DNA of 64,000 nucleotides from a virus (lineage: Duplodnaviria > Heunggongvirae > Uroviricota > Caudoviricetes): positions 39,434 through 103,433 of the IMG/VR virus record IMGVR_UViG_3300033463_000048. One strand, 5' to 3'. A program made the translations under genes and the position numbers. Positions 13,126-63,034 of this stretch are shown in pieces. The notes below the pieces were generated by a model that did not search any database, had not been told where the DNA came from, and saw only the letters and a list, made by a program, of their open reading frames with translations. Every line of letters begins with the position of its first letter. Position 1 is the first letter of the stretch.

Positions 13126-13188
13126 ATATAAATTATACAATAATTTTGTTTAAAAATCAAATTTAGGCATCATTTATTGATGCCTAAA
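13126..13188 (-). promoter_or_regulatory. terminator hairpin (ttaggcatca...tgatgcctaa) followed by conserved promoter (minus orientation) upstream of gyrB-like gene
   Basis: attata 13132-37, aatcaa 13155-60, 17-bp spacer; hairpin 13163-13188. Confidence 0.65.
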
Positions 13189-13901
13189 GCTTTTTCAGTA
13201 TTTTCTTTAAATTTAATGTGTAATAATCCCGCAGATGGATCCCACGGTTTTGGATATATACAATGAACTATGGTTAATGGAATTTTTTCTACCTCACTTT
13301 GTCTATCAGTTAAACGAGAACAATTATAACAATGATTAATAAATTTTATTTTCCCCTTACAGATTGTATTAATAGCATCTTGGTCTGGGAATTTTAATTT
13401 TTTGGTTTGAAGTAAATTACATAATTTTAAATCAATATGATCTCTACGCATAGCACGCAAATTAAGAAGTAAAACACCACTATTTATATAATTTTCTTTT
13501 GTATGAATTCCAGTTTCTGCTTCTTTTACTCCACACATATAATTTTCTTCAAAATCAGTATTCCATAAATTTTTTATTTTATTATAAAAGAAAACGTCTA
13601 AATCAAGATAAAGTATTTTATCTTCAAGTAAAATTTGAGAAACATAACAACGAGTAAAAGACATATACGTCCAAGCATTATCTTTATTTGGTCCATCTTT
13701 TATATATTTTGGAAAATTATTTATATTAACTAATCTAACTCTTTTATCTAAAGGGTATGGAAATTCATCATCTTCTATAAAAAGATAAATACGATATACT
13801 TCTGGATTAGTTTTAACCAAATTATATATAATACCTGGCGCATATTCATATAAGTTTCTTGTAATGGAAAACATTACGGTTATATCATTATTACCATCCA
13901 T
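13170..13901 (-). CDS. family 8 glycosyltransferase (LgtC/galactosyl- or glucosyltransferase-like)
   Basis: DLDVFF (DxD), NSGVLLLNL and HCxxPKPW motifs typical of GT8. Confidence 0.7.
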   Translation of the reverse strand: MDGNNDITVMFSITRNLYEYAPGIIYNLVKTNPEVYRIYLFIEDDEFPYPLDKRVRLVNINNFPKYIKDGPNKDNAWTYMSFTRCYVSQILLEDKILYLDLDVFFYNKIKNLWNTDFEENYMCGVKEAETGIHTKENYINSGVLLLNLRAMRRDHIDLKLCNLLQTKKLKFPDQDAINTICKGKIKFINHCYNCSRLTDRQSEVEKIPLTIVHCIYPKPWDPSAGLLHIKFKENTEKALGINK

Positions 13902-14964
13902 ACATTTCTTTCTCCCGTTTAGTTTTCTTTGGCATATTTGTCCAAACTAACAAATCACGTGCTCTTGTGGCTGCTACATAACTTAAGCACTTTTCTTCAG
14001 TATTATACATACGCGCCCCAACCACAATTACGTTCTTTCGCTCTAAGCCTTTCGCGCTATGAATTGTGAGGATTTTAACTGTGTTGTCTTCCATTTTTTC
14101 TCGAAGTTGTTCTGTGGTTAATTCGTTTCTTTTAAGTATATCGTATGGAAGTCCAACATCTTTAAATTTTCGTGCCACTTCATCAATTTGCGCATTAGTA
14201 CGAGTAAGAACAAACCAATCACGATATTCGTCTGTACTCTTTCTAATTCCTTTTACAATTTTACTTAAGTCATAAGTCATATCATAAACTTTACCGATAT
14301 TATCTCGCGCGGGATAAGATGTGTCCATATAATCTAATCCGGCAAGATTGATAATACGTTTTGCAAAATTTAATATCGCGCGACTATTACGGAAATTTTT
14401 GGTTAGGTCGTAGGTTTTTATTTTGGGGTCTTTTGCTAAGTCAAGGAGTATGTCAGGTCGGCTACCGCGGAACGTATAAATACTTTGACGCCAATCGCCC
14501 ACCATCATCCATTTCTTTGGCTTAATATAGTCAAGGATAACCTTAAACTGCATATCTGTAGAATCTTGCGCCTCATCAAGAAATAGATAATCCACTTCTC
14601 TAATACAATGAAGATTCTTACTAATTAAGTTAAACAAATCATCAAACTTTTCTTCTGATATAATAAAAGAAGTATCAATTCCATTTGAAGTTAAAAGAGA
14701 ATTAACATAAGAATGGATAGTTCCTACAAACATTCCATCTTTATAATCTTCCCCAAGGCGTGCACGTAGAACTTCTGCGGCGTTATTTGTGAAAGTAAAA
14801 ACTACAATTCGCACGGGATTGGTATCTGGCATTTGAAGTACTTTTCTAACCTTTTCAGTTAAAGTTTCTGTTTTTCCACTTGCGGCTGTAGCATTTACTA
14901 CAATAAAATCTTCTGTTGAATTGATAACTGCTTGCTGTTCTTCTGTAAAATCTTTATATTCCAT
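13891..14964 (-). CDS. compact UvrD/PcrA-like SF1 helicase
   Basis: Motif I VVNATAASGKT, motif VI-like LTIHSAKGLERKNVIVVGA; 357 aa. Confidence 0.6.
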   Translation of the reverse strand: MEYKDFTEEQQAVINSTEDFIVVNATAASGKTETLTEKVRKVLQMPDTNPVRIVVFTFTNNAAEVLRARLGEDYKDGMFVGTIHSYVNSLLTSNGIDTSFIISEEKFDDLFNLISKNLHCIREVDYLFLDEAQDSTDMQFKVILDYIKPKKWMMVGDWRQSIYTFRGSRPDILLDLAKDPKIKTYDLTKNFRNSRAILNFAKRIINLAGLDYMDTSYPARDNIGKVYDMTYDLSKIVKGIRKSTDEYRDWFVLTRTNAQIDEVARKFKDVGLPYDILKRNELTTEQLREKMEDNTVKILTIHSAKGLERKNVIVVGARMYNTEEKCLSYVAATRARDLLVWTNMPKKTKREKEMYGW

Positions 14965-16052
14965 TAATTTTCCTCTTCTACTTGATATTCTATAAGTTTT
15001 CTTTTTTGAGAATTAGAATACCTAAAATATCTATTATGAGTATGCTTCTTTTTTCCATCGCAAACTTTTTTGATGTCATTATAAGAAAAACCCAATTCTT
15101 TTTCTGCTTGTGTGGAAGATTTATATTTTTTAATAATACTACCATTTTCATCTATTTCTTCTATTTCACAACATTGAGAAGATAAAAGATATTTTTCATA
15201 TCGTTCTTCAAAACTATCTATTCCATTAAGTCTAAACCAAATATACCCTCCAGCGGTAATTTGATTACCTAATGCTGCGGCTTTTATACTACTAACATCT
15301 ATTTTTAATTGTTTTGATGCTTCACCAGCACTTTTCCAATTCTTAACAAAATTACCCTCTAAGTCATATTGACAGAGTATTTTTGTTATTGTTTTATTAT
15401 TTTTAACATCTTCTATTATTTTATTTATATTTTGTTCATCTTTCTTATAAATCCATATATAACCACATCCATAATGATGTGAAGGAATAAGTTTAGGCAA
15501 ATCTAAACCAGTTTCTTTTTTTGCTTGAGCGTAATTTTCATATATTCCAATTAAGTCTCCATTAAAGGTATATTGTAGCACTGTTCGCGGTTGACAATAT
15601 AATTCCAAAGACTTAACTCTTTTTAGAATACAGCTACGAGATGCGCCTAAAAGATTAGCAACCACAGGAACAGATTTTAATTCTTTATATGCTTCTATAA
15701 TTTCTTCATCAGAGAATTTTTGATGACCGCTACCACCACTTGAGATATTATATCCTATTTCCTTATTTGTTGAATTATATAAATCAATATAATATATTTC
15801 TTTATCATTTAATTCTTCATTTTTTACTCTTTCTAGTATTTCTCTTTTAAAATTTTTTTTACCATATTTTTTAATAGCATTACATAAAGCAGGACAATCA
15901 TTATTTGGATTATTATAAGCCCAAAAAATATGTTGCTGCCATCTTATGGGTTCTGGTACAATAGTTTGACCTATATATATTTTATTATTAATTAAATTTG
16001 TAATTTTATAAATTACTCCCATATTATCCTCCAGACTTAATATTATATCCAT
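14964..16052 (-). CDS. GIY-YIG homing endonuclease
   Basis: GVIYKITNLINNKIYIGQT ... YNISSGG GIY-YIG core; C-terminal DNA-binding repeats. Confidence 0.8.
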   Translation of the reverse strand: MDIILSLEDNMGVIYKITNLINNKIYIGQTIVPEPIRWQQHIFWAYNNPNNDCPALCNAIKKYGKKNFKREILERVKNEELNDKEIYYIDLYNSTNKEIGYNISSGGSGHQKFSDEEIIEAYKELKSVPVVANLLGASRSCILKRVKSLELYCQPRTVLQYTFNGDLIGIYENYAQAKKETGLDLPKLIPSHHYGCGYIWIYKKDEQNINKIIEDVKNNKTITKILCQYDLEGNFVKNWKSAGEASKQLKIDVSSIKAAALGNQITAGGYIWFRLNGIDSFEERYEKYLLSSQCCEIEEIDENGSIIKKYKSSTQAEKELGFSYNDIKKVCDGKKKHTHNRYFRYSNSQKRKLIEYQVEEEN

Positions 16053-17070
16053 AGATATCTGATTTATAAAAATCTATATAAAATTTTTCTCTTTCACCTA
16101 GATTTTTATCTAATGGAACTTCTTCTAATATTGTAAAAGTAAAATTATCCCAATTACTAAATAATGCTTTATGGATATTTGTTCTACTTATTGTTCCAAT
16201 ATTAAGTGAGGTTTTTATGTGCTCAGTCCATCTTTTTGTGATTTCTGCTTTAGTTTTACCTATATAAATTTCTCCACTTTTTTCATTTTTAATCATATAT
16301 ATAACATTTTTGGGATCTTTATTTCCTAAAGTTCTTTTCAGCATATTTTTAAAAGGTTGTTGAATATATTCTGTCCATATTATTTTATAAATGGTTTCTT
16401 TATTATTAAAATGATTTAATATAGAAACCAAATAGTTTATATCTGCTTTTGCTTCATCGGATAAACAAACTCTATAGAAATCTTGATTTTCAGAAATTTC
16501 ACGTTGACGTAGAATTTCCTTATTTATAACTTCGCGTTTTTGACGATAGTCTTCAACTTCTGTTTTAAGAGAAGAAAGTTCGAGATTCGCCCTCTCGATT
16601 TCTTCTCTATGCTTTTCCAAGAACTCTTCTAATTCTTCGCTTGACTCAGATTTAAGTTGTGAGAGTATAGAATCAAGTTGAGATTTATAAGAAGTATAAT
16701 TGGAATTATAGTAGTTTTGAAGAGTAAGGTCAATATTGTCTTTTTTAATTTGGAGTTGATTTTGAAGTTGAGCTTCAATTTCTTGCGCGCTTTCACGCTT
16801 AGATTCCAAAGTTTTTTCAATGCCGCGCAGATTAGATTTAGCAACTTCAGCATTTGCAATGGCCACGTCTGCGAGATTTTTGGCTTGGGTAAGTCTTTCT
16901 TCCTCTTTCCGCTCCAAGGACGAAATTTCCCATAATCTATTTTTATAAGATTCTTCTAATTTTTTATTTAATTCTATATAACTATCTTTAGAAAGTTTAT
17001 TTACTTTCTTTTTAAAGTAAATTATATAAATTAATAAACCTATAATTAAAGTAATTAAAAAATAATACAT
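16024..17070 (-). CDS. membrane-anchored coiled-coil protein with C-terminal GIY-YIG nuclease domain
   Basis: N-terminal TM helix LITLIIGLLIYIIYF, long Glu/Lys/Leu-rich heptad region, C-terminal VIYMIKNEKSGEIYIGKT...YNIKSGG. Confidence 0.6.
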   Translation of the reverse strand: MYYFLITLIIGLLIYIIYFKKKVNKLSKDSYIELNKKLEESYKNRLWEISSLERKEEERLTQAKNLADVAIANAEVAKSNLRGIEKTLESKRESAQEIEAQLQNQLQIKKDNIDLTLQNYYNSNYTSYKSQLDSILSQLKSESSEELEEFLEKHREEIERANLELSSLKTEVEDYRQKREVINKEILRQREISENQDFYRVCLSDEAKADINYLVSILNHFNNKETIYKIIWTEYIQQPFKNMLKRTLGNKDPKNVIYMIKNEKSGEIYIGKTKAEITKRWTEHIKTSLNIGTISRTNIHKALFSNWDNFTFTILEEVPLDKNLGEREKFYIDFYKSDIYGYNIKSGG

Positions 17071-32498: not shown

Positions 32499-33599
32499 TT
32501 ACTCTAATACCTGCGCCCAATCACATTCTCTAGGCGTCTTATCATCACGGAACCTAATAAGGCGGGGGTGGCGAATATGATGAGATACCTTATCAATCTG
32601 CATACCACCAACTTCTACAACCTTACCTTTATACGCTTCAGGGTTAGCTAAAACTTCTTCAGTAAGTCCGCTCAAATCACCAAAATAAACTGGCTGTCCA
32701 TCCTTTACCAGTCCAAGTTTAAGCGATCCCGCCCAACCATTATAAAAGTTCTTTGTAACTGGCACAATCGGTTCACCACGCATATAATCTTGGTAGTAAA
32801 CACCCTCAGGTAGATTCTCTTCTTTAATATTATCATACCAATAAGTCCACAACTCAATAGATTTTCCTTGATAAAGTTTAGAAGCAGGATTATACCCCAT
32901 GATAAAGCAATCAATAGTTTGTTTAAGTTCTTGCTTTACCTTAATACTTACTCGCGCGGGAGTACGCTTATCATATACGATAGCGTCATTGCGCATAATA
33001 ACCATTCCTTCGCGCCCACTAGCAAGATATTCTTGAAGTTTGTCCCATAATTCTTCACCCTCATAAAATTCTGCATAGTGAATATATTCACTAGAATATT
33101 TCTTCATTTGGTTAATATAATTTTGACGTTCTTTGTATGGAGTTTTATTTAGATTTTTCCCTTCAAAAGCCATACAATCAAAGATATGAAAATGAAGTGG
33201 GGTTTTCTTTTGACGTTCTATTGCTTTTTCTTTAAGGCAACCAAGAATACTAGTAACATTTTTACTACCCTCTGCATCTGGAATATAAACTTCTGCAAGA
33301 ACACAAGTTCCATTTGGGAGAATACCCATCCATTCTTTAAGCTGCGGCACCCAATCAATTTTATCCACAACTTCCCCGTTTACATTTCGTGAGCGCGCGA
33401 TCATAAAACAATTGCCATCTTCATCCTTAAGGATGCGTTGATAAAATCCATCTACTTTTAAACTCCCACTATATTCTCCTGAAAAAATAGCATTTTTTAC
33501 AGTTTCTTTTCTAATATTTTCAGAAGTAGAAGCGGGAAAACTCCAATATTTCATTGGAGAAATATTAAGCCAATCAATTTTATTAATATAACCTTTCAT
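32499..33599 (-). CDS. ATP-dependent DNA (or RNA) ligase
   Basis: Adenylation motif I SLKVDGF (KxDG), OB-fold-like C-terminal region. Confidence 0.65.
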   Translation of the reverse strand: MKGYINKIDWLNISPMKYWSFPASTSENIRKETVKNAIFSGEYSGSLKVDGFYQRILKDEDGNCFMIARSRNVNGEVVDKIDWVPQLKEWMGILPNGTCVLAEVYIPDAEGSKNVTSILGCLKEKAIERQKKTPLHFHIFDCMAFEGKNLNKTPYKERQNYINQMKKYSSEYIHYAEFYEGEELWDKLQEYLASGREGMVIMRNDAIVYDKRTPARVSIKVKQELKQTIDCFIMGYNPASKLYQGKSIELWTYWYDNIKEENLPEGVYYQDYMRGEPIVPVTKNFYNGWAGSLKLGLVKDGQPVYFGDLSGLTEEVLANPEAYKGKVVEVGGMQIDKVSHHIRHPRLIRFRDDKTPRECDWAQVLE

Positions 33600-34420
33600 T
33601 CAATATATCTCCATTCGTATCCATTACAAGTTTTTCTTTTACCTTTACACACTTTTGAAATACTGCTAGGATCTGTTTTAGTTTCTTCACCGGCTTGTTT
33701 TATTGTGTTATATTCTTTTATCAGTTTTCCATTTTTGTATTGTCCTACTTTTCTTAATGGACATTGTTTTAATTTTCTTTTTTGAGGAAGTTCATCTCCT
33801 TCTCTTATCCAAAAGAAACCTTTATATCCATTTTTAGTATTACAAGCAGTTTTTATACTATCCTTATTAAAACCAGTAATATAACTTGCTTCCTTTAAAG
33901 AAGAATAAGAGTTTACTAATTCTAATTCTTCTGTATATTGTAATACTCTTGATTCACTTTGCTTTATCCCGCTGTGTAAAAATCCTCTATCAATAATTTC
34001 TTCTTTATCATAAAGTCCTAATTCTTTCAACACATCTACAACAGATGAATACCACACCCCAAGTTCTTCTGATATTTGACGGACTGATTGTCCTTCTAGA
34101 TATTTAGTAGCAACTTCTTCTCTTTGTATCCATTTTCGGCCATCTCCTCCAATGGTGGTATTGTATCCATTTTTAATTGTGTCTAATTCTTTAATCCAAT
34201 AGATTTCTCTTTCATTAAGAATTTCATCAGAAACATTCTCTTCTAAAGGAATTATAGAAAAATGTTCTAAACCATATTTATTCATCGCTCGATATAAATG
34301 AGTATCGCTCTTCTTTGAAGCATAAATATGTTTACTCCAACGCGAAGCTAAAGTTTCAACAGTTTTCCCAATATAAATTTTTGAATTAAGATCATTTATA
34401 ATTTTATAAATAGTTCCCAT
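33596..34420 (-). CDS. GIY-YIG homing endonuclease
   Basis: GTIYKIINDLNSKIYIGKT ... YNTTIGGDG; C-terminal HTH-like repeats. Confidence 0.8.
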   Translation of the reverse strand: MGTIYKIINDLNSKIYIGKTVETLASRWSKHIYASKKSDTHLYRAMNKYGLEHFSIIPLEENVSDEILNEREIYWIKELDTIKNGYNTTIGGDGRKWIQREEVATKYLEGQSVRQISEELGVWYSSVVDVLKELGLYDKEEIIDRGFLHSGIKQSESRVLQYTEELELVNSYSSLKEASYITGFNKDSIKTACNTKNGYKGFFWIREGDELPQKRKLKQCPLRKVGQYKNGKLIKEYNTIKQAGEETKTDPSSISKVCKGKRKTCNGYEWRYIE

Positions 34421-34508: not shown

Positions 34509-35045
34509 TTAATTTTCTTTTTCTTTCAAATTTAAAGTCTCAAGGAAGAACTCTGCGGTTTCCTTTAACTCATCAATCGTTCCGTCATTTAAAATCCAAT
34601 AATCATAAGTATAATCAAAGACTTCTTCATCTGCATGATTGGAAGTTTCTTTTTCTTCTGCTTCTTTTCTGGATACAAATATAGTTGTCGCGCTGAATAC
34701 GTCTTTAAGTTTCTCAAGTTCCTTTGGTTCTCTTACACAAATAAATAATGCGCAATCATCTATAACTCCTTCAGATGCAAGTACGTCTTCCCAAAGTCCT
34801 TTTTCATATTCCAACTCTTTAAGAGGAACGTCTCTCCACTCGGTAAGTAAATCTTTCATGTCAGAAAGAAACTTTCTGTCCTTTGGAGTTTTCTCTCCAT
34901 TCCAACCACAATAAAATGCAATTTTCTTTACAAAATCAATTGATGAAATGCTATGTGCGCGAACACCCAAGATATCTTTACAATAATTAATAAATGTGTC
35001 TTTACCAGCGGTTGCACAGCCATTAACCAAAATTACTTTTATCAT
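34509..35045 (-). CDS. deoxynucleoside monophosphate kinase-like P-loop kinase
   Basis: MIKVILVNGCATAGKDTF resembles the T4 gp1 dNMP kinase N-terminus. Confidence 0.55.
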   Translation of the reverse strand: MIKVILVNGCATAGKDTFINYCKDILGVRAHSISSIDFVKKIAFYCGWNGEKTPKDRKFLSDMKDLLTEWRDVPLKELEYEKGLWEDVLASEGVIDDCALFICVREPKELEKLKDVFSATTIFVSRKEAEEKETSNHADEEVFDYTYDYWILNDGTIDELKETAEFFLETLNLKEKEN

Positions 35046-36000
35046 ATTCTACTCCTAGTTCATTAAGCCACTCTAAAAAAGTTTGTGGAAATACATAAAT
35101 TTTCTTATCTATTGATTTAAATTGGTGTATTTTATCAGAAAGTTCTTCCCAAAATTTAGGACTATTTATTGCTTTTTTTATTGCTGGAATCGAAAAAAAA
35201 TCTTTTAAAAGACGGATTATTTCTTCAGGAATTTCGAATCCGCGTGCTAATGCTGTTTGGAAATATCCGTATGAATGAAAACCATATCCTGCCAGTTTAT
35301 ATACATTTATTCCCTTTTCGTTAAGAAAAATAACTGCTTTGCATACAGCAGTAATATAATCTAGTCCTAAAATACCATTACGTGCAGTGCCTGTTGCTCT
35401 AGTTAAAGAATTATTTTCATCTCTCCAAAGATATAATGGATCCTCTAAATATTTTACATTAGAAGTAAGTCCCATACACTTGATTAAGAAACAAATATCT
35501 TCATTACCTCTAAGCCCTTCTTCAAATCTTATATCATTATTTCTAAGAAAAGAAGTTTTAAAAATTTTTCCATGAAGCCAAATCCTGGCACTAGTTTTAG
35601 GATGAATAAGTTGATCTGCGCTTTTCTTTGATTCTACAGCAATTGTAGACATTACTATGTCAGTATTTAAGTCACGAGTAATTTCATAACTTAATTTTTT
35701 TATTGTATTAGGCATCAGCATATCATCTGAATCAAGAAAAGTTACATAATCTATATTAGATCTATAACATATATCTAACCCATATTGGCGCGCCATGCCT
35801 GGACCGCTATTCTTTTCCATTCTAAAGCATTTAATATGTAATTTATCTACGTATTCATCACATATTTCACATAAATCAATATCACTACAATCATCAATTA
35901 CAATTGTGAAAAAACGTTTGTTTGTTTGATTAACCAAAGAGTCAAGAGCCTCTCTTAACTGATCTGGTCGGTTATAAGCTGGAATTATAACTGCTAACAT
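35023..36000 (-). CDS. family 2 glycosyltransferase (GT-A fold)
   Basis: IIPAYNRPDQLREALDSL...IDDCSD and DSDD motifs. Confidence 0.75.
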   Translation of the reverse strand: MLAVIIPAYNRPDQLREALDSLVNQTNKRFFTIVIDDCSDIDLCEICDEYVDKLHIKCFRMEKNSGPGMARQYGLDICYRSNIDYVTFLDSDDMLMPNTIKKLSYEITRDLNTDIVMSTIAVESKKSADQLIHPKTSARIWLHGKIFKTSFLRNNDIRFEEGLRGNEDICFLIKCMGLTSNVKYLEDPLYLWRDENNSLTRATGTARNGILGLDYITAVCKAVIFLNEKGINVYKLAGYGFHSYGYFQTALARGFEIPEEIIRLLKDFFSIPAIKKAINSPKFWEELSDKIHQFKSIDKKIYVFPQTFLEWLNELGVEYDKSNFG

Positions 36001-36859: not shown

Positions 36860-36898
36860 TCTTTTATTATACCATACTTTTTCAGAAAAAGCAAATTT
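36860..36898 (-). promoter_or_regulatory. conserved promoter-family member (minus orientation)
   Basis: Minus strand reads aagcaa(-35-like)-17 bp-tataat; plus-strand coordinates attata 36866-71, aagcaa 36889-94. Confidence 0.55.
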
Positions 36899-36959
36899 AC
36901 TGATTTTGATTTCAATTTTTTTACTTATTTTAAGAGAAAGAAAATTTGAAAAAATTTTT

Positions 36960-37000
36960 AAATTGTGTTATTCGCGTGCGCACCCGCGCGTCATGCGCGC
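36960..37000. promoter_or_regulatory. cluster of GC palindromes (GTGCGCAC, CGCGCG-tcatg-CGCGCG) in AT-rich divergent intergenic region; candidate operator
   Basis: ttattcgcgtgcgcacccgcgcgtcatgcgcgcgttatttt immediately downstream of an AAATTTGAAAAAATTTTTAAATTG promoter-like motif. Confidence 0.5.
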
Positions 37001-37044
37001 GTTATTTTAATAAGGAAGTCATTTTGGAGAAAAGGAGTTTTTGT

Positions 37045-38058
37045 ATGGGAGTAGATTTTGTAGATTTCTCTTTCAATGGGAGAACCAATAGACAACTAAA
37101 TATCTCACGTGTCAGTGACGGCTCACGATATACAGAACAGCTACTTCCTCAATTAAAGGACACAACAGTTGATCCCGAGGGAGTAGATGGAGTTTTATTT
37201 TTTAATACATTTTATAAAACTAAACAAATTACATTAAATATTGCTTTTGATGCAGTTACAGAAACACAACTTAGGGAAATACGTAAAATTTTCTGTGGGC
37301 GCCAACCGGCAGATTTAATTTTTTACGAACGTCCATATAAGATATATAATGCAAAAGTAACTGGCACACCAGAAATTAAAGTTATCCCTTTTAGAGAAAG
37401 ACTTGTTTCTGGTAGTAATACTTATATCTTACCTGCAAATGATCCAATTCGTAGTGCAATTCCAGGGGATGATGGAGTGCGCACAGAAATGGTCTATGCA
37501 GAAAATCCGGTACGTATATATAAAGGAGAGGGTACAATAACTCTCTCTGCTTTCACCCCATATGCACACACGCCTGAGAATGGCAAATATCTTGATGGCG
37601 CGGCTTATAGTTCTTGTACTAATATAAGTGACTGGGCAGAAAGCGCGGGATTACTCCCTCATCAAACAGTAGATGGGGTTACTTATGATTCATTTTCTCA
37701 TCTTACTAATCAGATAAGAGTATATAATCCTGGCGATTTGCCTACTCCGTTTGTTTTAAAATTTCAAACAACCGCGGCTGGAGAAACTTCGATTAGCCTT
37801 GGAAAAACAGGACAACTCCCTGAATATGTTCTCACCTTAAATTCCCCTTCTGCGGGAGCATACTTTCTTTTGGACAGTAAGCAGGGACTTATATATAACT
37901 GCGATTCAAGTTATAATCCTATTTCCGTAGCAAATAATTATATAACCGGTGGTACGGCATTATTTAAAATCGGACTTTGTACAATTGAAGATGATTATCG
38001 TTTTACTTTAAGTAATGTATCTAATGCTACCATCTTATATAATTATCTATATTTCTAA
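37045..38058 (+). CDS. siphovirus-type distal tail protein (Dit)-like / phage tail family protein
   Basis: Start MGVDFVDFSFNGRTN with RBS aaaaggag; FxFNG N-terminus resembles Dit; the annotated ORF start at 36946 is probably too far upstream. Confidence 0.45.
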   Translation: MGVDFVDFSFNGRTNRQLNISRVSDGSRYTEQLLPQLKDTTVDPEGVDGVLFFNTFYKTKQITLNIAFDAVTETQLREIRKIFCGRQPADLIFYERPYKIYNAKVTGTPEIKVIPFRERLVSGSNTYILPANDPIRSAIPGDDGVRTEMVYAENPVRIYKGEGTITLSAFTPYAHTPENGKYLDGAAYSSCTNISDWAESAGLLPHQTVDGVTYDSFSHLTNQIRVYNPGDLPTPFVLKFQTTAAGETSISLGKTGQLPEYVLTLNSPSAGAYFLLDSKQGLIYNCDSSYNPISVANNYITGGTALFKIGLCTIEDDYRFTLSNVSNATILYNYLYF

Positions 38059-38070: not shown

Positions 38071-38382
38071 ATGGACTATGTAATTGTAATTCTTAAATTG
38101 GTTTGTTTCCTTGCGGCGCAAATTCCTCTTATTATCCAACTAATTAAATATGTAAAGACTGCCGCAAAGGAAAAAGACGGTTGGAAACGTCTTGTAGGAC
38201 TTGCATTAGTTTACATTCAAGAAGCAGAAAAACTTTTTGATAATGGCGCGAGTCGTAAAGAATGGGTTTCTACAATGATTCTTACTACTGCTGATGAAAT
38301 TGGATATAAACTTAGTGAAGATGAACTTTCTAAGTTGATTGATGATTTAGTTGGAATGAGTAAGAATGTTAATGTTGGATAA
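38071..38382 (+). CDS. putative holin-like small membrane protein
   Basis: N-terminal TM helix, charged C-terminus, 103 aa, followed by terminator. Confidence 0.4.
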   Translation: MDYVIVILKLVCFLAAQIPLIIQLIKYVKTAAKEKDGWKRLVGLALVYIQEAEKLFDNGASRKEWVSTMILTTADEIGYKLSEDELSKLIDDLVGMSKNVNVG

Positions 38383-38387: not shown

Positions 38388-38417
38388 AAGGCTAGTCTAA
38401 GGACTAGCCTTTAAAAT
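38388..38417 (+). terminator. rho-independent terminator
   Basis: aaggctagtc-taag-gactagcctt followed by T-rich run. Confidence 0.7.
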
Positions 38418-42013: not shown

Positions 42014-43630
42014 ATGATAAATTATTTCGGCTATCTTGAAGTGGAACTTAATGATGAGGACTTTGCAACACTACAAGGAGGAAGCACACCTGAGTCTTTG
42101 GGAGAGTTAAAAGAGAACCAATATATTATTGCTAAAGACCGGTTTGGGAGAGTTGAATATTTTCAGTTTAAGAATAGTAAAGTAGAAAGAATTTTATATA
42201 CTGAATTAGGGAATGATTTTACAGGTAAAATTAAACCATTAAACGACCAACAAGTTTGCGCCTTTCATATGTTAAGAGATAAGGACGTTCCGGTGAAACT
42301 TATAACTGGTAAGTTTGGTACCGGTAAGGCGCAACCAATAGATACAGTAATCCCTACCCCAATGGGTATGAAGAGACTTGGGGATATAAAAGTTGGAGAT
42401 TATGTGTTCGCGCGTGATGGACGTAAAACGAAAGTTTTAGGTATATTTCCTCAAGGAGTTCTTACTAATTATAGAGTAGAACTTAGCGACGGGCGCGTTG
42501 TATTTTGTAATGATGAACATATTTGGACTTGCGTGGATAAAGATGGAAATTTTTTTGATACTACAATTAAAGAAATTATAAGTTCTTATATGTTATATGA
42601 GGGAGAATATTATAGAATCCCTTGGAACGAAGCAGTTAAATATGAAGCAGTTATAGACGAAAGGGATTTTTATAAGGAAGGACATTACATCTCTTGTGAA
42701 ATTCCTAAAGAATTTATGACCGCGCCGATTGATCAAAGAATGCGTCTTTTAGCTGGAATTATTGATTCTAAAGGACTTATCAAGGCACGCCGCTTATATT
42801 TAAGACTTAAGGACTTTAATCTTATTAGGGATATGTATTCTTTCTTAATGGGATTAGGAATTTACGCATATAATGATGATACTGTAATTGAAGATAACTT
42901 AACTGCGGAAATTCATTTATGTTTAAACGAAAAGCAAATAAGTGAAATTTCTCCTTATCTTTATATGTTTGAATTAGAGAGACAAATCGATCCCGAGGAG
43001 AAACCTGCACTAGAAATCACCGATATATATACTGTTGGTGAAGCAGAAATGGTATGTATTTTGGTTGATAATCCAGAGCATTTATATTTGACTAATGATT
43101 ATATTGTAACTCATAATACAATGGCAAATATTGTTGCCGCGCTGGAAGCGGTTCAAAAGGGTGAGTTTGAGAAGATTATATTTATTAGAAATAATGTACA
43201 AGTGGCTGGGACAGATCCCATTGGCGCACTTCCAGGAGACGAACATGATAAACTTCTTCCGTATTTAATGCCTTTTGCAGACCATTGCGGTGGTATAGAA
43301 GGTATTCAAAGATTAATAGAAGAAGAAAAACTTGAAGTAATTCCTCTTGCTTTTTTAAGAGGTCGTAGTATTAGAAATGCTATTCTTTATTCAATGGAAT
43401 CAGAAAATTTAACTAAAGAACATATTCAATTAATTTTAGGAAGAGTAGATAAGGGTTCTCAGTTATGGATGGATGGAGATATTAAGCAAAGAGATAAGGC
43501 TATATTTGAAAAGTCTCAAGGACTTGAAATTATGATTGAAAGACTGGCGGGGAATCCTTTATTTGGCTATGTAAATTTAGTTAAGTCAGAACGTTCACCA
43601 ATAGCCGCACTTAGCGATCTACTTGATTAA
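42014..43630 (+). CDS. phoH: PhoH-like ATPase interrupted by an intein
   Basis: The 105-aa N-extein ends GKFGTGK; the C-extein TMANIVAALEAVQKGEFEKIIFIRNN...LPGDEHDKLLPYLMPFADH is a PhoH core. Removing residues 106-368 restores the Walker A motif GTGKT. Confidence 0.8.
   Translation: MINYFGYLEVELNDEDFATLQGGSTPESLGELKENQYIIAKDRFGRVEYFQFKNSKVERILYTELGNDFTGKIKPLNDQQVCAFHMLRDKDVPVKLITGKFGTGKAQPIDTVIPTPMGMKRLGDIKVGDYVFARDGRKTKVLGIFPQGVLTNYRVELSDGRVVFCNDEHIWTCVDKDGNFFDTTIKEIISSYMLYEGEYYRIPWNEAVKYEAVIDERDFYKEGHYISCEIPKEFMTAPIDQRMRLLAGIIDSKGLIKARRLYLRLKDFNLIRDMYSFLMGLGIYAYNDDTVIEDNLTAEIHLCLNEKQISEISPYLYMFELERQIDPEEKPALEITDIYTVGEAEMVCILVDNPEHLYLTNDYIVTHNTMANIVAALEAVQKGEFEKIIFIRNNVQVAGTDPIGALPGDEHDKLLPYLMPFADHCGGIEGIQRLIEEEKLEVIPLAFLRGRSIRNAILYSMESENLTKEHIQLILGRVDKGSQLWMDGDIKQRDKAIFEKSQGLEIMIERLAGNPLFGYVNLVKSERSPIAALSDLLD
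42329..43117 (+). mobile_element. intein (263 aa) with LAGLIDADG homing-endonuclease domain; Ala1, C-terminal HN, +1 Thr
   Basis: Block A AQPIDTVI, block B NDEHIWT, LAGLIDADG-like MRLLAGIIDSKG, C-terminal YIVTHN followed by T. Confidence 0.75.
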
Positions 43631-44435
43631 GGTATTAAAAATGACAAATATTTATAAGATAACAAATATTGTTAATGGTAATATTTATATTGGAAAAACA
43701 ATTAACAATATTAATGACCGTTGGAAAGAACATATTTACTCTGCGATATCAAAAGATAAAGATGGTAATTGTCCTCTTCATTGTGCTATTAGAAAATATG
43801 GAAAAGAAAATTTTTTAATAGAATTAATTGATAGGTGCGAGGATTTTGATAGTTCAAATAAGGAAAAGTATTGGATAAAATACTATGATTCTTATAATAA
43901 TGGATATAATGCTACTTTGGGTGGGGATGGAAATCCATTATATGATAGAGAATATATCAAAAAATTATGGGACGATGGGCTGTCTAATAAAGAAATTAGA
44001 GAAATTATTGGTTGTGATAAGAAAGTAATAAGAAAGACTCTTTATTCTTATGGCATAACAAAAGAAGAGCTTTATAAAAGAAGAGGGAAGAATATAGAGA
44101 AAGATATAGATAAAGATTATTTAAAAGAGTTATGGGATGAAGAGCTAACTCTAACCCAAATTGCCGAAATTTTTAATGTTGAACAAAAAACTATTATGCG
44201 AAGATTAGAAAAAATTGGTATTGACTCTAATCAACGACATAATAGATATTATGATTCACTTTTAAAGGTTCATTGGTCTGTTATTTTAAATTTGTATAAA
44301 GAAGGAAAAACTATTTCAGAAATTCGAAAAATAACGGGCTGTGGATTTAATTCTATAGAAAAAACAATAATCAGGCATCGAGACTATTTAAAAGATAAAA
44401 ATGAAGTCAGGACTATGGCTGATTTGCTTGATTAA
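43623..44435 (+). CDS. GIY-YIG homing endonuclease
   Basis: NIYKITNIVNGNIYIGKT ... YNATLGGDG; repeated HTH-like modules. Confidence 0.8.
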   Translation: MIKVLKMTNIYKITNIVNGNIYIGKTINNINDRWKEHIYSAISKDKDGNCPLHCAIRKYGKENFLIELIDRCEDFDSSNKEKYWIKYYDSYNNGYNATLGGDGNPLYDREYIKKLWDDGLSNKEIREIIGCDKKVIRKTLYSYGITKEELYKRRGKNIEKDIDKDYLKELWDEELTLTQIAEIFNVEQKTIMRRLEKIGIDSNQRHNRYYDSLLKVHWSVILNLYKEGKTISEIRKITGCGFNSIEKTIIRHRDYLKDKNEVRTMADLLD

Positions 44436-58850: not shown

Positions 58851-59161
58851 ATTTTGAGAACCAACTTCAAATTATTCTTTCAAAACATATTCTCGTTTTT
58901 ACACCCGACTATCACGTTGTAGTATATAGTTGGCGCGCCATGCAAGAATTAGCGGAATACTTCAAAACTTACCAAAGCGCGCACACAGATTTTCTATATA
59001 CCTCTATGGCGCAGTCTACTGCGCCTGGGGATTATGCTGGCGCGGATGCGTGGGGCGCATTTAGTTGGGTAGATAATGGTGAAATTAAAATGTTTGGATT
59101 AAATTTTATGCAGGAAGCGCAGGAAAATAGATTTAAGCAATTTAATTCCACTTCTAATTGA
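58841..59161 (+). CDS. hypothetical protein
   Basis: 106 aa; last ORF before long non-coding region. Confidence 0.4.
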   Translation: MMSDFENQLQIILSKHILVFTPDYHVVVYSWRAMQELAEYFKTYQSAHTDFLYTSMAQSTAPGDYAGADAWGAFSWVDNGEIKMFGLNFMQEAQENRFKQFNSTSN

Positions 59162-59303
59162 ACTCATTAGTTTACGGAAAACCGCGAACTAATGGGTTCG
59201 CGAGATAAGTTCAACTCTTATATGAGTTATTGGTTTGACTTTATTTGACTCCTTTCTTTAGTTGTACCTCTTTCTTACAGCGCGGACGAGAGTTCGCGCA
59301 CCT

Positions 59304-59381: not shown

Positions 59382-59571
59382 CTCAGGAAGACCATCCCAT
59401 CGCGGCGTATGATCTTCTACCGTTATCATGAATTTCGAGTACTTAAACTACCACCGGCACTCAACTTAGGCGTCCTTGAGATATGCGAGTCAGTGATATG
59501 TGGCATTTAGTGGGGAACGGTATATAAGAACGCAAAGTAAAGTACTCCTCTCTTTGAGAGAATTAAAATTT

Positions 59572-59616
59572 TAAAATTTGAAAAAGTTTTAAAATTTTGG
59601 TATAATTTTTATAGAA
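59572..59616 (+). promoter_or_regulatory. conserved promoter-family member
   Basis: ttgaaa 59578-83, tataat 59601-06, spacer 17, then TTTTATAGAAAGTTGAGAGAG. Confidence 0.65.
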
Positions 59617-59655
59617 AGTTGAGAGAGAAATCTCACTTTATATTACAACAATATC

Positions 59656-59725
59656 GCGGAGTAGAGGAGAGGAACCTTGCTAGGCCCATAACCTAGAGAC
59701 GCGAGTTCGAATCTCGCCTTCCGCA
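59656..59725 (+). tRNA. tRNA-Met/Ile2-like (anticodon CAT) with short D-arm
   Basis: T-arm GCGAG-TTCGAAT-CTCGC, anticodon arm CTAGG-CCCATAA-CCTAG, acceptor GCGGAGT/CTTCCGC with one mismatch. Confidence 0.5.
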
Positions 59726-59729
59726 ATCA

Positions 59730-60110
59730 AAGGTGCACACAGCAAACTTTTTAAACAAGCATATGATTAGGGATCATATCCTCCACAATAGGATAAGCGA
59801 AGTTGGCGCCTTGTATTTTTAACTTAAAAGCACTTACTGCAATTTTAAAACCGCCGAAAGGCTCCACAGATTAAAGATGAAAATGCAACTTTAGTGGCAT
59901 CCTGCCATAAACTTAAAAAAGTGCTTTGGAATTTTTAAAACTTAAAAGCTCACCCAGCAAACTTAAATTGGGATAATAAAACAACATTGTGAACGCTGTT
60001 TTTAAGTGGTTCAAGTCCACTATAAAGAGCTTTGTAAATTGAAAAGAAACTTAAACGCCCTTTCTGCAATCTTAAAAAATAGCTTAAAGGTAAAGCAATT
60101 CACTTGTAAT
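59730..60110 (+). repeat. array of degenerate 30-45-nt repeats (AACTTAAAAGC..C(A/T)GCAAAC/CTGCAAT.. units) with embedded tRNA-arm-like hairpins
   Basis: Units gcacacagcaaac, gcacttactgcaat, gctcacccagcaaac, gccctttctgcaat each preceded by aactt-aaaag. T-arm-like GTGGTTCAAGTCCAC at ~60005. No ORF of 60 aa or longer on either strand. Confidence 0.5.
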
Positions 60111-60160
60111 GAATATATGCGGTTCGAATCCGTTTTTGGGCGTTGTATTTTTACTAAACT
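60063..60160 (+). other. degenerate tRNA-like sequence (anticodon-arm ATTCA-CTTGTAA-TGAAT; T-loop GCGG-TTCGAAT-CCGT)
   Basis: Imperfect acceptor pairing; probably a decayed tRNA or tRNA-like RNA. Confidence 0.3.
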
Positions 60161-60175
60161 TAAAGGAGAATTCTT

Positions 60176-61765
60176 ATGTCAGATTTTTGGTCACTTATGA
60201 AAAACGAAGATAATTACACATATACAGAGAATGGCGCAGTAGCATATAAGAGTTCTCTTAATAAGTGTTTGGATATGTTTGCAACCTTCGGCGCTTTGAG
60301 AAAAGAGTCCGATTGGTCAACATATACGCAGATATTCCTCGATGCAATTGCTGAGGATCCTGTAACTGCAATGAAGGTTTTGTTCTATGTGCGTGATATT
60401 CGTGGTGGACAGGGCGCACGTACAATCTTCCGTAAGTGTATGGAAGCTCTCGTAAATACTCATACGGATTATCTTAAGGCTGTAATTGAGTTAATTCCTG
60501 AGTATGGTAGATGGGATGACCTTTTTGTACTAATTAAATACCGTAATAGAGAAGTAAATCAGATTATTCTTGAGTTCATTGCTAAGACCCTTACAACTGA
60601 TCTCTGTGGATTATCTAATACACTTCTTGCAAAGTGGATGCCTTCAGAGTCTGCCTCAAATGTAGAGCAGAAGAAGTTGGCTGCATACTTTACAAATAGA
60701 CTTTTCAATGGAGATAAGAGAACTTATCGTAAGACAATTTCTCGTCTTCGTGAGAATAGTCATATTGTAGAGACTTCAATGTCCGCAAATAAGTGGGATA
60801 TTGATTTCTCAAAGGTGCCTTCACGGGCATCTCTAAAATATAAAGACGCCTTCTATAACCACAATCCTGAGGGTTATACAAAGTATCTGTATGATGTCGC
60901 AACCGGTAAGGCTAAGATTAATGCGGCTGCTTTGTTCCCAGTAGATATTGTAGAAAAGGCTCAGATAACTTCTCTTAGCGATAAGAGAAATGTTATCACC
61001 CTTGATGCAATGTGGAAGGCTCTTCCTAACTACCTTGAAGGTAAGGAAGAAACTGGATTGTGTGTTGTAGACGTTTCCGGTTCCATGAGTGGAACACCTT
61101 TGAACGTTGCTTTGTCACTTGGCTTGTACTGTGCAGAGCGCGCGAAGGGTCCTTACAATGGAAAGTTTATTACATTCTCTGAGAGACCTCAGATGGTTGA
61201 AGTTCGCGGCAAGAATCTTGTCGAGAAGCTTCAGAATATGAATCGCGCGCATTGGGATATGAATACAAATATCGAAGCGGTATTTGATTTGATTCTCGAT
61301 ACGGCAATTCGTAATAAGCTTCCACAGTCTGATATTCCTTCAAAGTTGTATATCATTAGTGATATGCAGTTTGACGCAGCAAGAAATGAGTATGGTTCTT
61401 GGTACGGTTATCGCCGTAAGCCAAGAGCTAACGAAAGAACCTTTATGACAACCATAAAGGAGAAGTTTGCTCGTGCGGGCTATGATATGCCACTTCTTGT
61501 GTACTGGAATGTAAGACCAAGTAAGGCGGGAATGTTTCAGGAAACCGTCGGTGGTGAACAGTGCTGTATGGTTAGCGGGTTCTCTCCTTCGTTGTTCAAG
61601 GCTGTAATTGAAGGCACTTCTTACGAAGAGCAGGTAATTACAACCGAAACGGGCGAGAAGAAGACCGTTACCGTACAGAAGCTGAACCCATTGGATATGA
61701 TGATGAAGACATTGTCAAATCCAAGATACGATGCGGTTGGTGAAGCAATGAAGGCGTTTAGTTAA
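60176..61765 (+). CDS. Ro60/TROVE-like RNA-binding protein with C-terminal vWA (MIDAS DxSGS) domain
   Basis: N-terminus GAVAYKSSLNKCLDMFATFGAL and VLFYVRDIRGGQGARTIF fit a TROVE-like pattern. The vWA MIDAS motif is CVVDVSGSMSGTPL. The C-terminal CCMVSGFSPSLFKAVI parallels Ro60 MCGFDTGALDVI. Total length 529 aa. Confidence 0.5.
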   Translation: MSDFWSLMKNEDNYTYTENGAVAYKSSLNKCLDMFATFGALRKESDWSTYTQIFLDAIAEDPVTAMKVLFYVRDIRGGQGARTIFRKCMEALVNTHTDYLKAVIELIPEYGRWDDLFVLIKYRNREVNQIILEFIAKTLTTDLCGLSNTLLAKWMPSESASNVEQKKLAAYFTNRLFNGDKRTYRKTISRLRENSHIVETSMSANKWDIDFSKVPSRASLKYKDAFYNHNPEGYTKYLYDVATGKAKINAAALFPVDIVEKAQITSLSDKRNVITLDAMWKALPNYLEGKEETGLCVVDVSGSMSGTPLNVALSLGLYCAERAKGPYNGKFITFSERPQMVEVRGKNLVEKLQNMNRAHWDMNTNIEAVFDLILDTAIRNKLPQSDIPSKLYIISDMQFDAARNEYGSWYGYRRKPRANERTFMTTIKEKFARAGYDMPLLVYWNVRPSKAGMFQETVGGEQCCMVSGFSPSLFKAVIEGTSYEEQVITTETGEKKTVTVQKLNPLDMMMKTLSNPRYDAVGEAMKAFS

Positions 61766-61787
61766 AACCTAAACGCCTTTTTCTTTT
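61751..61787 (+). terminator. rho-independent terminator overlapping the stop codon and abutting tRNA-Asp
   Basis: aaggcgtttag-ttaaaac-ctaaacgcctt followed by tttcttttg. Confidence 0.75.
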
Positions 61788-61859
61788 GGTTCTATGGTAT
61801 AACGGTTAGAATGTCGCGCTGTCAACGCGGAGACGGGAGTTCAACTCTCCCTAGAACCG
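61788..61859 (+). tRNA. tRNA-Asp (GTC)
   Basis: Acceptor GGTTCTA/TAGAACC, anticodon loop CTGTCAA, T-arm GGGAG-TTCAACT-CTCCC. Confidence 0.8.
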
Positions 61860-61864
61860 TCTAT

Positions 61865-61937
61865 GGTGGAAGTGGCAGATAGGCAATGCGCTAGATTGTG
61901 GCTCTAGTTTATGCGAGTTCAAATCTCGTCTTCTACC
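61865..61937 (+). tRNA. tRNA-His (GTG) with encoded G-1 and C73
   Basis: Extra 5' G, acceptor GTGGAAG/CTTCTAC, anticodon arm CTAGA-TTGTGGC-TCTAG, T-arm GCGAG-TTCAAAT-CTCGT. Confidence 0.8.
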
Positions 61938-61945
61938 TTTAATAT

Positions 61946-62025
61946 GGGCGTGTAGCCTAATTGGCTGAGGCAGCAAACTGTTAATTTGTCCTTCGGGAAT
62001 GTGGGTTCAAGTCCCACCGCGCCCG
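61946..62025 (+). tRNA. tRNA-Asn (GTT)-like with extended 11-nt variable region
   Basis: Acceptor GGGCGTG/CGCGCCC, D-arm GCCT-AATTGGCTG-AGGC, anticodon loop CTGTTAA, T-arm GTGGG-TTCAAGT-CCCAC. Confidence 0.55.
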
Positions 62026-62035
62026 CTTATAAAAT

Positions 62036-62117
62036 GCGCGTATCGCCTAGTGGTAGGGCACATGACTTTTAATCATGCGGATATAATCCATCGGTGGTTC
62101 GAATCCACTTGCGCGCA
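62036..62117 (+). tRNA. tRNA-Lys (TTT)-like with long 15-nt variable arm
   Basis: Acceptor GCGCGTA/TGCGCGC, anticodon arm CATGA-CTTTTAA-TCATG, T-arm GGTGG-TTCGAAT-CCACT. Confidence 0.55.
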
Positions 62118-62204
62118 GTAAATTTTGAACCCTGTTTTAAACTATTATATTTATTTATTAACAATTTTACTTATAGTTAGAAAATAAATAGGAGGCTCAA
62201 TAAA

Positions 62205-62816
62205 ATGAGTAATAGTAAATCAGTGGTTAATCATATCAAAAAAAGAAAAAGAGATTTGGTAAGACTTTTTGGAGGGAAATGCTGTATTTGTGGTTTTGAT
62301 AAATATCCAGAGGCTTTAGAATTCCATCATATTAATCCCGAAGAGAAAGAGTTTGGTTTAATGGAGAAAGGTGCAACAACAAAAGCTTTGGAAAAACAAT
62401 TAAAAGAGCTAAAAAAATGCATTATGGTTTGTTCTAATTGTCATAAAGGCATTCATGCTGGAAGAATTGAGTTACCAACAGAAGTTCCTGGGTACGATGA
62501 AGAAATTGCTGAAGAACTACTAAGAGAAAACTACCGAATTAAACATGGACAGCAATTTTATTGTCCTCGATGCGGGGCGCCTGTAAGTACGAAAGGTGTT
62601 CATTGTATTCCATGTTCAAATCTTTTATCTAGAAAAGTAGATAGACCGAGCAGAGAAGAATTAAAAGAACTTATTCGAAATGTTGCCTTTACAAAAATTG
62701 CTGAAAAATTTGGTGTCTCAGACAATGCAGTTCGTAAATGGTGTAAAACATATAATTTACCATCAAAGAAAAAAGAAATATCCAATTATTCAGATGAAGA
62801 TTGGGAAAAAATTTAG
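62205..62816 (+). CDS. HNH homing endonuclease with C-terminal HTH
   Basis: CCICG...LEFHHINPEEKEF...CSNCH HNH core; second Cys4 cluster; C-terminal IAEKFGVSDNAVRKWC. Confidence 0.8.
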   Translation: MSNSKSVVNHIKKRKRDLVRLFGGKCCICGFDKYPEALEFHHINPEEKEFGLMEKGATTKALEKQLKELKKCIMVCSNCHKGIHAGRIELPTEVPGYDEEIAEELLRENYRIKHGQQFYCPRCGAPVSTKGVHCIPCSNLLSRKVDRPSREELKELIRNVAFTKIAEKFGVSDNAVRKWCKTYNLPSKKKEISNYSDEDWEKI

Positions 62817-62821
62817 TAAAT

Positions 62822-62893
62822 GCTCCTATAGTTTAATTGGTAAAATAAAAGCCTTGTAATCTTTAGTTCTCCGTTCGATTCGGAGTGGGAGCT
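62822..62893 (+). tRNA. tRNA-Thr (TGT)-like
   Basis: Acceptor GCTCCTA/TGGGAGC, anticodon loop CTTGTAA with weak stem, T-arm CTCCG-TTCGATT-CGGAG. Confidence 0.55.
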
Positions 62894-62944
62894 TTTCCGC
62901 ACGGAATAGGTGCGAGCTACGCGCCGTATCTATTTTGTGTATAT

Positions 62945-63029
62945 GCCGGATTGGAGTAATTGGTTATCTCAAGGACCTGCTAAGTCCTCCCACTGAAAGG
63001 TGGTGTGCGTTCGAGTCGCGCATCCGGCG
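62945..63029 (+). tRNA. tRNA-Ser (GCT), class II
   Basis: Acceptor GCCGGAT/ATCCGGC, anticodon arm AGGAC-CTGCTAA-GTCCT, long variable arm CCCACTGAAAGGTGG, T-arm GTGCG-TTCGAGT-CGCGC. Confidence 0.8.
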
Positions 63030-63034
63030 CTTAT

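Follow-up and report, generated by a model that had tools for sequence, protein, structure and literature searches.

Why does a compact GC-rich sequence lie across the start region of what looks like an ordinary promoter, in phage DNA that is otherwise very rich in A and T? The question is raised by a 208-bp divergent intergenic region in a 64,000-nt stretch (hereafter the window) of the IMG/VR virus record IMGVR_UViG_3300033463_000048 (positions 39,434 to 103,433; Caudoviricetes), which separates a leftward operon from a rightward pair of genes headed by a Dit-like (distal tail) gene. The sequence at issue is the tract cgcgtgcgcacccgcgcgtcatgcgcgcg at 36973-37001. An earlier note on this DNA had described a string of 41 bp; the actual length is 29 nt. 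Its G+C content is 24/29 (83%), and that of the remainder of the intergenic region is 21%, in agreement with the surroundings of about 20% GC that had been described. We tentatively favour the reading, in our estimate close to but still short of probable, that the cluster constitutes the discriminator and initial-transcribed region of a putative promoter, P1, and would act as a torsion-sensitive DNA gate on the two-gene unit downstream.

The tract is exceptional in the window. It is the top-ranking 29-mer for G+C, and a comparably GC-rich stretch of 29 nt is expected by chance about 0.009 times per 64 kb (binomial). It is also the sole intergenic GC cluster of its kind in the window, as there is a sole one in each relative's locus; the remaining GC-rich patches of the window lie inside genes or tRNAs. 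Purines and pyrimidines alternate along it in three blocks of 11, 7 and 10 nt with phase slips between them, reading CGCGTGCGCAC, C, CGCGCGT and CATGCGCGCG (36973..37001, a feature without strand). The palindrome GTGCGCAC occupies 36976-36983 and the hexamers CGCGCG lie at 36985-36990 and 36996-37001 with tcatg between them, just as the earlier note had reported. On the plus strand the inverted hexamers (36985..37001) are followed by TTATTTTAAT and resemble an intrinsic terminator; we judge them to be a by-product of CG alternation. The exact 29-mer had no match in a scan of IMG/VR, and Rfam 15 returned none at gathering or permissive level (the top score being 24.5 bits where gathering demands 100). 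The contig of the closest relative (L004, Dit 81% identical) starts within its GC tract (L004 1-23), which suggests an assembly or coverage break, a physical DNA end being less likely.

The elements upstream of the tract are best explained as a putative host-type (sigma-A) promoter, P1; promoters of this type have a -35 hexamer near TTGACA, a spacer of 16-18 nt and a -10 of the form TAnnnT, from which the -10 of the window departs. The -35 region, AAAT-TTGAAA (36942..36951, plus strand; hexamer TTGAAA at 36946-36951), recurs in class A, a set of about 17 nearly identical consensus promoters of the window that follow the pattern AAATTTGAAAAA-N-TATAAT-TTATATAGAAAG, and its AAAATTTGA is invariant among relatives. 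Exactly 17 nt past the -35 stands the -10 slot (36969-36974), part of the extended -10 element TGT-TATTCG (36966..36974, plus strand). The hexamer TATTCG is without the usual final T because the tract starts at 36973, the fifth base of the slot; the TG of the extended -10 compensates in part. The claim that the cluster replaces the -10/+1 region of the promoter is thus correct from the fifth base of the slot onward and not for the -10 as a whole, since the -35, the 17-nt spacer, the TG and TATT are all kept. From there the tract takes in the final 2 nt of the -10 slot, then the discriminator and the expected start, and extends over roughly 20 bases of the predicted transcript, so that P1 is G+C-rich between -10 and +1, as GC-rich-discriminator promoters are. 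Among the class A promoters of the window, P1 alone is GC-rich over the 20 nt past the -10; at the others this region is conserved and AT-rich, with 10-35% GC.

The same arrangement recurs in relatives. Close relatives, obtained by a protein search with Dit, have Dit proteins 58-81% identical and syntenic contigs, and further lineages were found by Dit-alignment and DNA-pattern scans of metagenome and viral contigs. The distant lineages added in this way have Dit proteins 30-38% identical, the same module and a perfect -10. The carriers of the module form a broad family of large uncultured phages, found in rumen and gut metagenomes on contigs of about 100-135 kb. Every recovered relative has a GC cluster at the homologous position, differing in sequence and length; examples are CGCGCGTGCGCCCGCACGCATGCGCGCG (L005), CGCGCGTGACGCGCGCG (L008), CGCGCACACGCACGCGCG (L009), CGTATGCGCGTCGCGCGCG (L012), CGCGCGTGCGCTCGCGTGTACATGCGCGCG (L015), GCGCGCACCCGCGTGCG (L016), CACGCACACGCGTGCGCG (L056), CACGCGTGCACACACGCGCG (L071), CACGCGTACACGCACGTGCGTGCACACGCG (L074) and CACGCGCACACGCACGCGCG (L096). 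The promoter of the distant lineages reads AAAATTTGATTTT-17-TATAAT with the tract immediately after it, then a T/A-rich block, often TATATAAT, and AAGGAAG.

Across these lineages the geometry is strict. The -35 box is kept and the spacer is 17 nt in 18/18 lineages despite the diverged spacer sequence, the -10 is TATAAT in 9/18 and of the form TATnnn in the others, and the tract, 10-30 nt long, begins 0 to 3 nt short of the end of that slot in 18/18. Because spacer length is fixed despite sequence turnover, we argue that P1 is a real polymerase-binding promoter, and, from where the tract lies, transcription from P1 should start within it. Two cases extend the pattern: L245, found through a scan with the 14-mer TGATATAATCACGC, has alternating segments of 7 and 25 nt past TTGACA-17-TATAAT, and L009 and L096 share an identical 18-mer in the tract despite very divergent Dit proteins. 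The genes for RNase H and a GT2 glycosyltransferase occupy the divergent side without exception, L146 included, which has a gene other than Dit downstream; an amidase-like gene takes the downstream place in L096.

What is selected in these tracts is GC-richness together with purine/pyrimidine alternation in CG and CA/TG steps, and no particular sequence or palindrome. All 15 lineages tested have an alternating fraction of 0.88-1.0 (p ≤ 0.0045 each, mononucleotide shuffles), and perfect alternating runs of 18-30 nt are present in 6 of the 15. Tracts of equal length differ by 65 transitions and 10 transversions, against 23 and 101 in the adjoining spacer of the same pairs; at the Dit divergence of 60-70%, neutral sites should be randomised. 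The 706 kb of loci L017-L144 contain eight GC-rich alternating runs of at least 12 nt, six of which lie at this promoter, and among the matches listed for chance occurrences of TGATATAATCACGC elsewhere, 0/120 alternate unbroken beyond 11 nt. Left-handed Z-DNA requires a sequence that alternates in this way over at least 8-12 bp, mainly in CG and CA/TG steps, and the tracts are of this kind.

Raw counts of CGCGCG or GTGCGCAC would exaggerate the effect because GCGC and CGCG are in excess by about 4-5 fold genome-wide, so clustering and conservation carry the argument. GCGC occurs 311 times and CGCG 217 times in the window, compared with 23 for GGCC and 75 for CCGG, and GCGC reaches 5.4 times the base-composition expectation. 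Coding sequences hold 256 GCGC, spread over all three frames, where synonymous-codon shuffling leaves 100.7 ± 7.6. The GCGC excess is 4.8-5.7 fold in L005, L008, L009, L012, L015 and L016. L067 has zero GCGC in 6.7 kb and keeps a 20-nt GCGC-free alternating tract, CACATGCGTACACGCACGCG; the selected feature is therefore not a GCGC array, and a GCGC-reading protein is not the point. An array of GCGC-binding or methylation sites was rejected on this ground. Candidate causes of the genome-wide excess are DNA-level selection, modification or a binding protein. The lactococcal Chi site, GCGCGTG, was also tried and rejected, as only about 6/15 tracts contain the exact 7-mer, which shows no enrichment in the window (1 + 3 copies).

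The palindromes do not stand out beyond the alternation. With DNA parameters and shuffles that keep each tract's purine/pyrimidine pattern and base content, hairpin or cruciform stability showed no excess over 15 lineages (mean z -0.10, Fisher p 0.51), and no conserved dyad with fixed spacing was found across the lineages, the tract centres being variable. The earlier note had proposed an operator or other protein-binding site built on the palindromes. Its general idea survives, as the tract is a conserved cis-element on P1 for which a role in control is very likely; the palindromes as the functional feature do not survive the shuffles.

The energetics of the tract were modeled with the dinucleotide B-Z energies and junction costs of PMC3024258, Table 1. 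By these energies, and per superhelical turn relieved, Z-DNA forms most cheaply at the tract, both in the 64-kb window and in 12/14 relatives' loci. A simplified model with a single run in a 5-kb domain has the tract flip at a superhelical density (sigma) of about -0.04, well ahead of other sites. Of all sites in 5 kb, the segment 36900-36972, which adjoins the tract on its upstream side, has the strongest predicted stress-induced melting. With somewhat higher duplex stability the Z state dominates from -0.04 to -0.06; with low-salt parameters 36900-36972 melts instead above |sigma| of about 0.045. The B-Z and melting models are crude: they permit no more than one Z run and one melted run, and they leave possible base hypermodification out of account.

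A gate of this kind would make P1 dependent on DNA topology. In the B-form, the tract would be a stiff, hard-to-melt start region on an otherwise consensus-type promoter. Under enough negative superhelical stress it would be the first in its neighbourhood to flip to Z-DNA, and the stress would come from negative supercoils behind polymerases leaving P_left, the strong divergent early promoter. With Z-DNA spanning -8 to about +20, polymerase would be able neither to form an open complex nor to elongate, and the Z-form tract would also absorb torsion that might otherwise open the adjacent, very AT-rich promoter DNA. In the direction that we prefer, the gate would be shut early, while P_left fires on supercoiled DNA, and would open later, once the phage DNA replicates or relaxes and early transcription declines. 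The holin-like gene of the unit would then be silent early despite its location among early genes. We infer that P1 fires, that it starts within the tract, and that a B-Z or other torsional transition takes place in vivo with this sign; the sign of the regulation is the least secure step and a guess. In its most specific form, which we regard as rather unlikely, the modeled behaviour would amount to a bacteriophage Z-DNA switch that times the holin-like/tail pair by topology and needs no dedicated repressor, with the tract left-handed under P_left firing and supercoiling and in the B-form on replicative relaxation. In work attributed to Peck and Wang from 1985 and to Rahmouni and Wells from 1989, Z-form (CG)n is said to block E. 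coli RNA polymerase in vitro and to form in vivo upstream of active promoters. GC-rich discriminators make promoters supercoiling-dependent, and divergent promoters are the most strongly supercoiling-coupled (PMC6700405). We also count in favour of the gate that the phage has a two-subunit type II topoisomerase of its own.

Several points weigh against the gate. In L008 and L012 the tract does not rank first for Z-propensity, and a central CCC phase slip, costly for Z-DNA, is present in 5/15 lineages (the window, L005, L016, L030 and L087). Strand separation in the AT-rich flank competes with the transition, so that the Z outcome depends on the duplex-stability parameters, and unconstrained supercoiling in vivo is below the predicted Z onset. 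Hypermodified bases may be present and would alter all of the energetics. In the clade of the window, P1 may be weak or silent, given its crippled -10 TATTCG with no T at -7, and the tandem class B promoter upstream of it (described below) could produce some transcripts that contain the whole tract as RNA. The lineages are related to each other, so that the per-lineage statistics are not independent.

Among known systems, by analogy, the tract appears most like a GC-rich-discriminator promoter combined with the Z-forming flipon tracts found near start sites. Supercoiling-sensitive promoters such as E. coli tyrT, rrn and fis are, like the putative P1, of sigma-70 type with a GC-rich stretch from the -10 to the start that resists melting. 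In these promoters the stretch is about 6-8 nt, whereas the phage tract is 10-30 nt and runs far into the transcribed region; it also alternates purine and pyrimidine, which the discriminator model does not require. The phage is one of a Firmicute-type host, in which discriminator physiology differs, and no ppGpp/DksA logic is implied. The link of P1 to a divergent promoter fits the coupling between transcription and supercoiling (PMC6700405). Z-forming (CG)n/(CA)n flipons share with the phage tract a CG/CA-rich alternation near the start and a predicted flip under transcription-generated supercoiling (PMC3024258). On the phage side, several copies of the tract carry phase slips, and Z formation is a model prediction.

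The nearest prokaryotic precedent known to us is the Halobacterium bop promoter, which has an alternating purine/pyrimidine (RY) box. The phage tract differs from it in covering the start site instead of lying upstream, and in being a 10-30 nt element on a phage sigma-A-type promoter, with conservation of its pattern and not of its sequence. We know of no natural Z-forming tract described in a bacteriophage or on a bacterial sigma-A promoter. According to the reference to Yang et al. 1996 given in PMC3184054, the bop promoter is stimulated by supercoiling and non-B structure. Two other kinds of element are similar in part. Lambda tR', past PR', is an intrinsic terminator/attenuator with a GC hairpin and a T-rich run past a promoter at the head of a late-type unit, as in the window copy; unlike tR', the phage hairpin is not selected beyond composition, its U-run is not conserved, the expected promoter start lies inside it, and no Q-like antiterminator was identified. 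Palindromic operators over the -10/+1 share with the tract the position and the short palindromes (GTGCGCAC; CGCGCG-N5-CGCGCG). Unlike them, the tract has no conserved dyad or spacing and a variable length, and keeps the R/Y class alone.

Should the proposal be right, purine/pyrimidine alternation would itself be under purifying selection at a prokaryotic promoter, with transversions purged and transitions tolerated over the 18 lineages. It would also be a rare natural case of regulation by non-B DNA in bacteria or phages, for which most work on Z-DNA has relied on engineered inserts, and would couple late or lysis expression to genome topology with no protein in between. Even without Z-DNA, the module is a clearly delimited new promoter architecture, consisting of a consensus -35/-10, an alternating GC start region and a Shine-Dalgarno-like leader. 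Rfam and literature searches found no described family that matches it.

The conserved position of the tract would also suit a protein-binding site, an explanation that we consider unlikely. A factor would repress or activate P1, or a second promoter that uses the TATAAT-like hexamer downstream, possibly by reading CGCG/CACGCG-type half-sites, DNA shape or Z-DNA rather than a strict sequence. The overlap with -8 to about +20 is the classic operator position, there is one site per locus, and the tract ends are fairly constant, starting with CACGC or CGCG and ending with GCGCG. The 18-mer shared by L009 and L096 points the same way, and in the several lineages with a downstream TATAAT the tract takes the -35/spacer position, as in activator-dependent late promoters. 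CACGCG or CGCGTG is found in 14/15 lineages, although CACGCG is expected by chance in any CG/CA alternating tract. The variable length of 10-30 nt and the lack of a conserved dyad make the tract unlike a classical operator: dyad spacing is not fixed, the centre drifts freely by transitions, and palindromicity is not above the expectation from alternation alone. No DNA-binding protein or helix-turn-helix regulator was identified adjoining the tract. The neighbouring 127-aa and 100-aa proteins gave no lead in Pfam, PHROG or PDB, and the divergent 127-aa gene is missing from the L009 clade. At the RNA level, a tract hairpin in transcripts started upstream, for example at class B, would act as an attenuator/terminator or as a 5' stabiliser; we find this improbable. 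The window copy does combine a GC stem-loop with a U-run, scores in a terminator-like scan on the plus strand only, and has the class B motif upstream of P1, as do all lineages. A tract-spanning hairpin is possible in every lineage (-8 to -20 kcal/mol), and the conserved AAGGAAG and mini-ORF (open reading frame) downstream recall the 5' stabilisers of Bacillus mRNAs. A short region with a terminal terminator-like hairpin comes after the module in L152 and L149. The stable leader hairpin that the earlier note had offered as its alternative nevertheless fares poorly. Single-sequence folds are no better than dinucleotide shuffles (window z -0.05), nor is stability above the alternation-preserving shuffles. 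RNAalifold over 16 lineages gives 4 pairs at -2.5 kcal/mol with no compensatory change, and at least 5 T in the 8 nt past the tract are kept in only about 7/17 lineages, the distant clade having TATATAAT there. Because P1 is expected to start inside the tract, the 5' arm would be untranscribed, and thus missing from P1 transcripts, in relatives with short tracts. The phage's ordinary terminators use mixed-sequence stems and not alternating CG, and a hairpin has no need of purine/pyrimidine alternation.

A role in replication or topology, which we rate as very improbable, could take the form of a promoter-primed origin or of a site for the phage type II topoisomerase between the divergent units. 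In the origin version, the GC-rich first 10-25 nt of the P1 transcript would form a persistent RNA:DNA hybrid, processed by RNase H, beside easily unwound DNA. RNase H is the divergent neighbour in all lineages, even with a different downstream gene, although this adjacency may be plain synteny. The strong predicted melting of 36900-36972 and a local minimum of the cumulative GC skew at about 37 kb would suit an origin, but the skew tracks gene orientation and falls lower still at about 17.5 kb, neither iterons nor repeats for initiator binding were seen, and R-loop stability does not need alternation, a feature that this role leaves unexplained. Topoisomerase II and other replication genes are encoded by the phage, and type II topoisomerases favour alternating purine/pyrimidine DNA. 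Hardly credible, finally, is the remnant of a mobile GC cluster (similar to repetitive extragenic palindromes, miniature inverted-repeat transposable elements or yeast mitochondrial GC clusters) that landed in the promoter and left TTATT as a target-site duplication. TTATT directly flanks the window tract on both sides, the tract is a GC island within AT-rich DNA, and the -10 hexamer appears interrupted. The repeat is not kept in relatives, there is one copy per window or locus with no dispersed family, and the orthologous position in 18 lineages, half of them with a perfect TATAAT upstream, effectively rules out a mobile insertion.

The other cis-elements of the intergenic region frame P1 on both sides. 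The class B motif TTTTTTTACTTATTTTAAGAGAAAG (36916..36940, plus strand) lies in tandem directly upstream; at this locus it is kept among relatives with ACTT invariant. A search with the motif gave 3 matches against 0.3 expected, every one intergenic. Sites of the form TTTTTTACTT-W5-6-AGAGAAA were observed at 17709, 23722, 29900, 36918 and 62164 on the plus strand and at 34453 on the minus strand. Class B sites directly precede the ribosome-binding sites of structural and lysis genes and are kept in relatives, and class B is probably a phage late promoter, which some factor would recognise. No sigma factor was seen in the window.

Downstream of the tract, a T/A-rich block leads to the Shine-Dalgarno-like polypurine AAGGAAG (37002..37018, plus strand) and includes a -10-like hexamer, which is TTTAAT in the window and TATAAT in several relatives. 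Within the block, TAATAAGGAAG is invariant in the close clade; the block itself is kept in distant lineages, and the combination of block and AAGGAAG is unique within each locus. A late promoter at TAATAAGGAAG was rejected, as the sequence does not recur at other intergenic sites. The conserved ATTTTGGAG (37021..37029, plus strand) holds the TTG that opens the mini-ORF. In most relatives this TTG stands 3-5 nt past AAGGAAG and opens 3-9 codons, the peptide not being conserved; in the window the mini-ORF reads in frame into the Dit-like gene. AAGGAAG and the mini-ORF (37012-37029) could be a ribosome-loading or stabilising leader. In L152 (8734-8830) and L149 (minus strand, about 1811-1844), the short region that ends in the terminator-like hairpin is possibly a small RNA.

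On the divergent side, P_left (36866..36894, minus strand; TTGCTT-17-TGG-TATAAT) is a regular class A member that is kept in relatives, with its -35 about 50 bp from that of P1. A palindrome in its spacer, TTTTTCAGAAAAA (36880-36892), is CodY-box-like and not kept in relatives. P_left is predicted to drive the leftward operon, which comprises the 127-aa gene, RNase H, the GT2 glycosyltransferase, a deoxynucleoside monophosphate (dNMP) kinase, a GIY-YIG endonuclease and an ATP-dependent ligase. Class A promoters, presumably early promoters, include those at 1332, 6312, 8739, 8861, 13160, 34529 and 36894 on the minus strand and those at 38418, 40007, 48569, 49601, 57680, 57988 and 59578 on the plus strand.

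The P1 unit itself starts with the Dit-like gene (37045..38058, plus strand; 337 aa, distal tail/Sipho_tail RIFT), preceded by the ribosome-binding site AAGGAG (37032-37037). The second gene (38071..38382, plus strand) encodes a holin-like protein of 103 aa with one N-terminal hydrophobic helix; its match to Holin_LLH is weak (E 1.7e-4) and below the Pfam cutoff. A hairpin at 38389-38410 and the class A promoter at 38418 follow, which delimits the P1 unit to two genes amid early-type promoters. The plus block, called late/accessory in the earlier note, is thus not uniformly late, with many early-type consensus promoters from 38418 on.

The phage as a whole is distant from described ones. Megablast, and tblastn with Dit, gave no match, and searches of cultured phages at the DNA and protein level, near and distant, found no relative that carries the module. 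The phage encodes a two-subunit type II topoisomerase; topoisomerase II and a RecJ-like exonuclease are about 33-35% identical to those of known phages. A GT8 and a GT2 glycosyltransferase and the dNMP kinase lie among the replication genes (13170-13901, 34509-35045 and 35023-36000), a set that hints at hypermodified DNA, perhaps with glycosylated hydroxymethyl-pyrimidines.

Four GIY-YIG homing-endonuclease-like genes were observed at 33596-34420, 14964-16052, 16024-17070 and 43623-44435. The copy between the ligase and the dNMP kinase is missing from L005, L008 and L009, and the copy past PhoH is missing from L005, which is consistent with recent mobile insertions. The PhoH-like gene (42014-43630) encodes 538 aa and has an extra N-terminal P-loop segment that matches terminase and DnaC-like profiles; its homologue in L012 has 276 aa. 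ARAGORN reported a tRNA-like gene with a 4-nt anticodon at 59161-59229. Adjoining it is a 593-nt non-coding stretch (59413-60005) with a tRNA-Met and GCAAACTT(T)AAA-like repeats, which precedes a block of 14 further tRNA genes (60072-63934).

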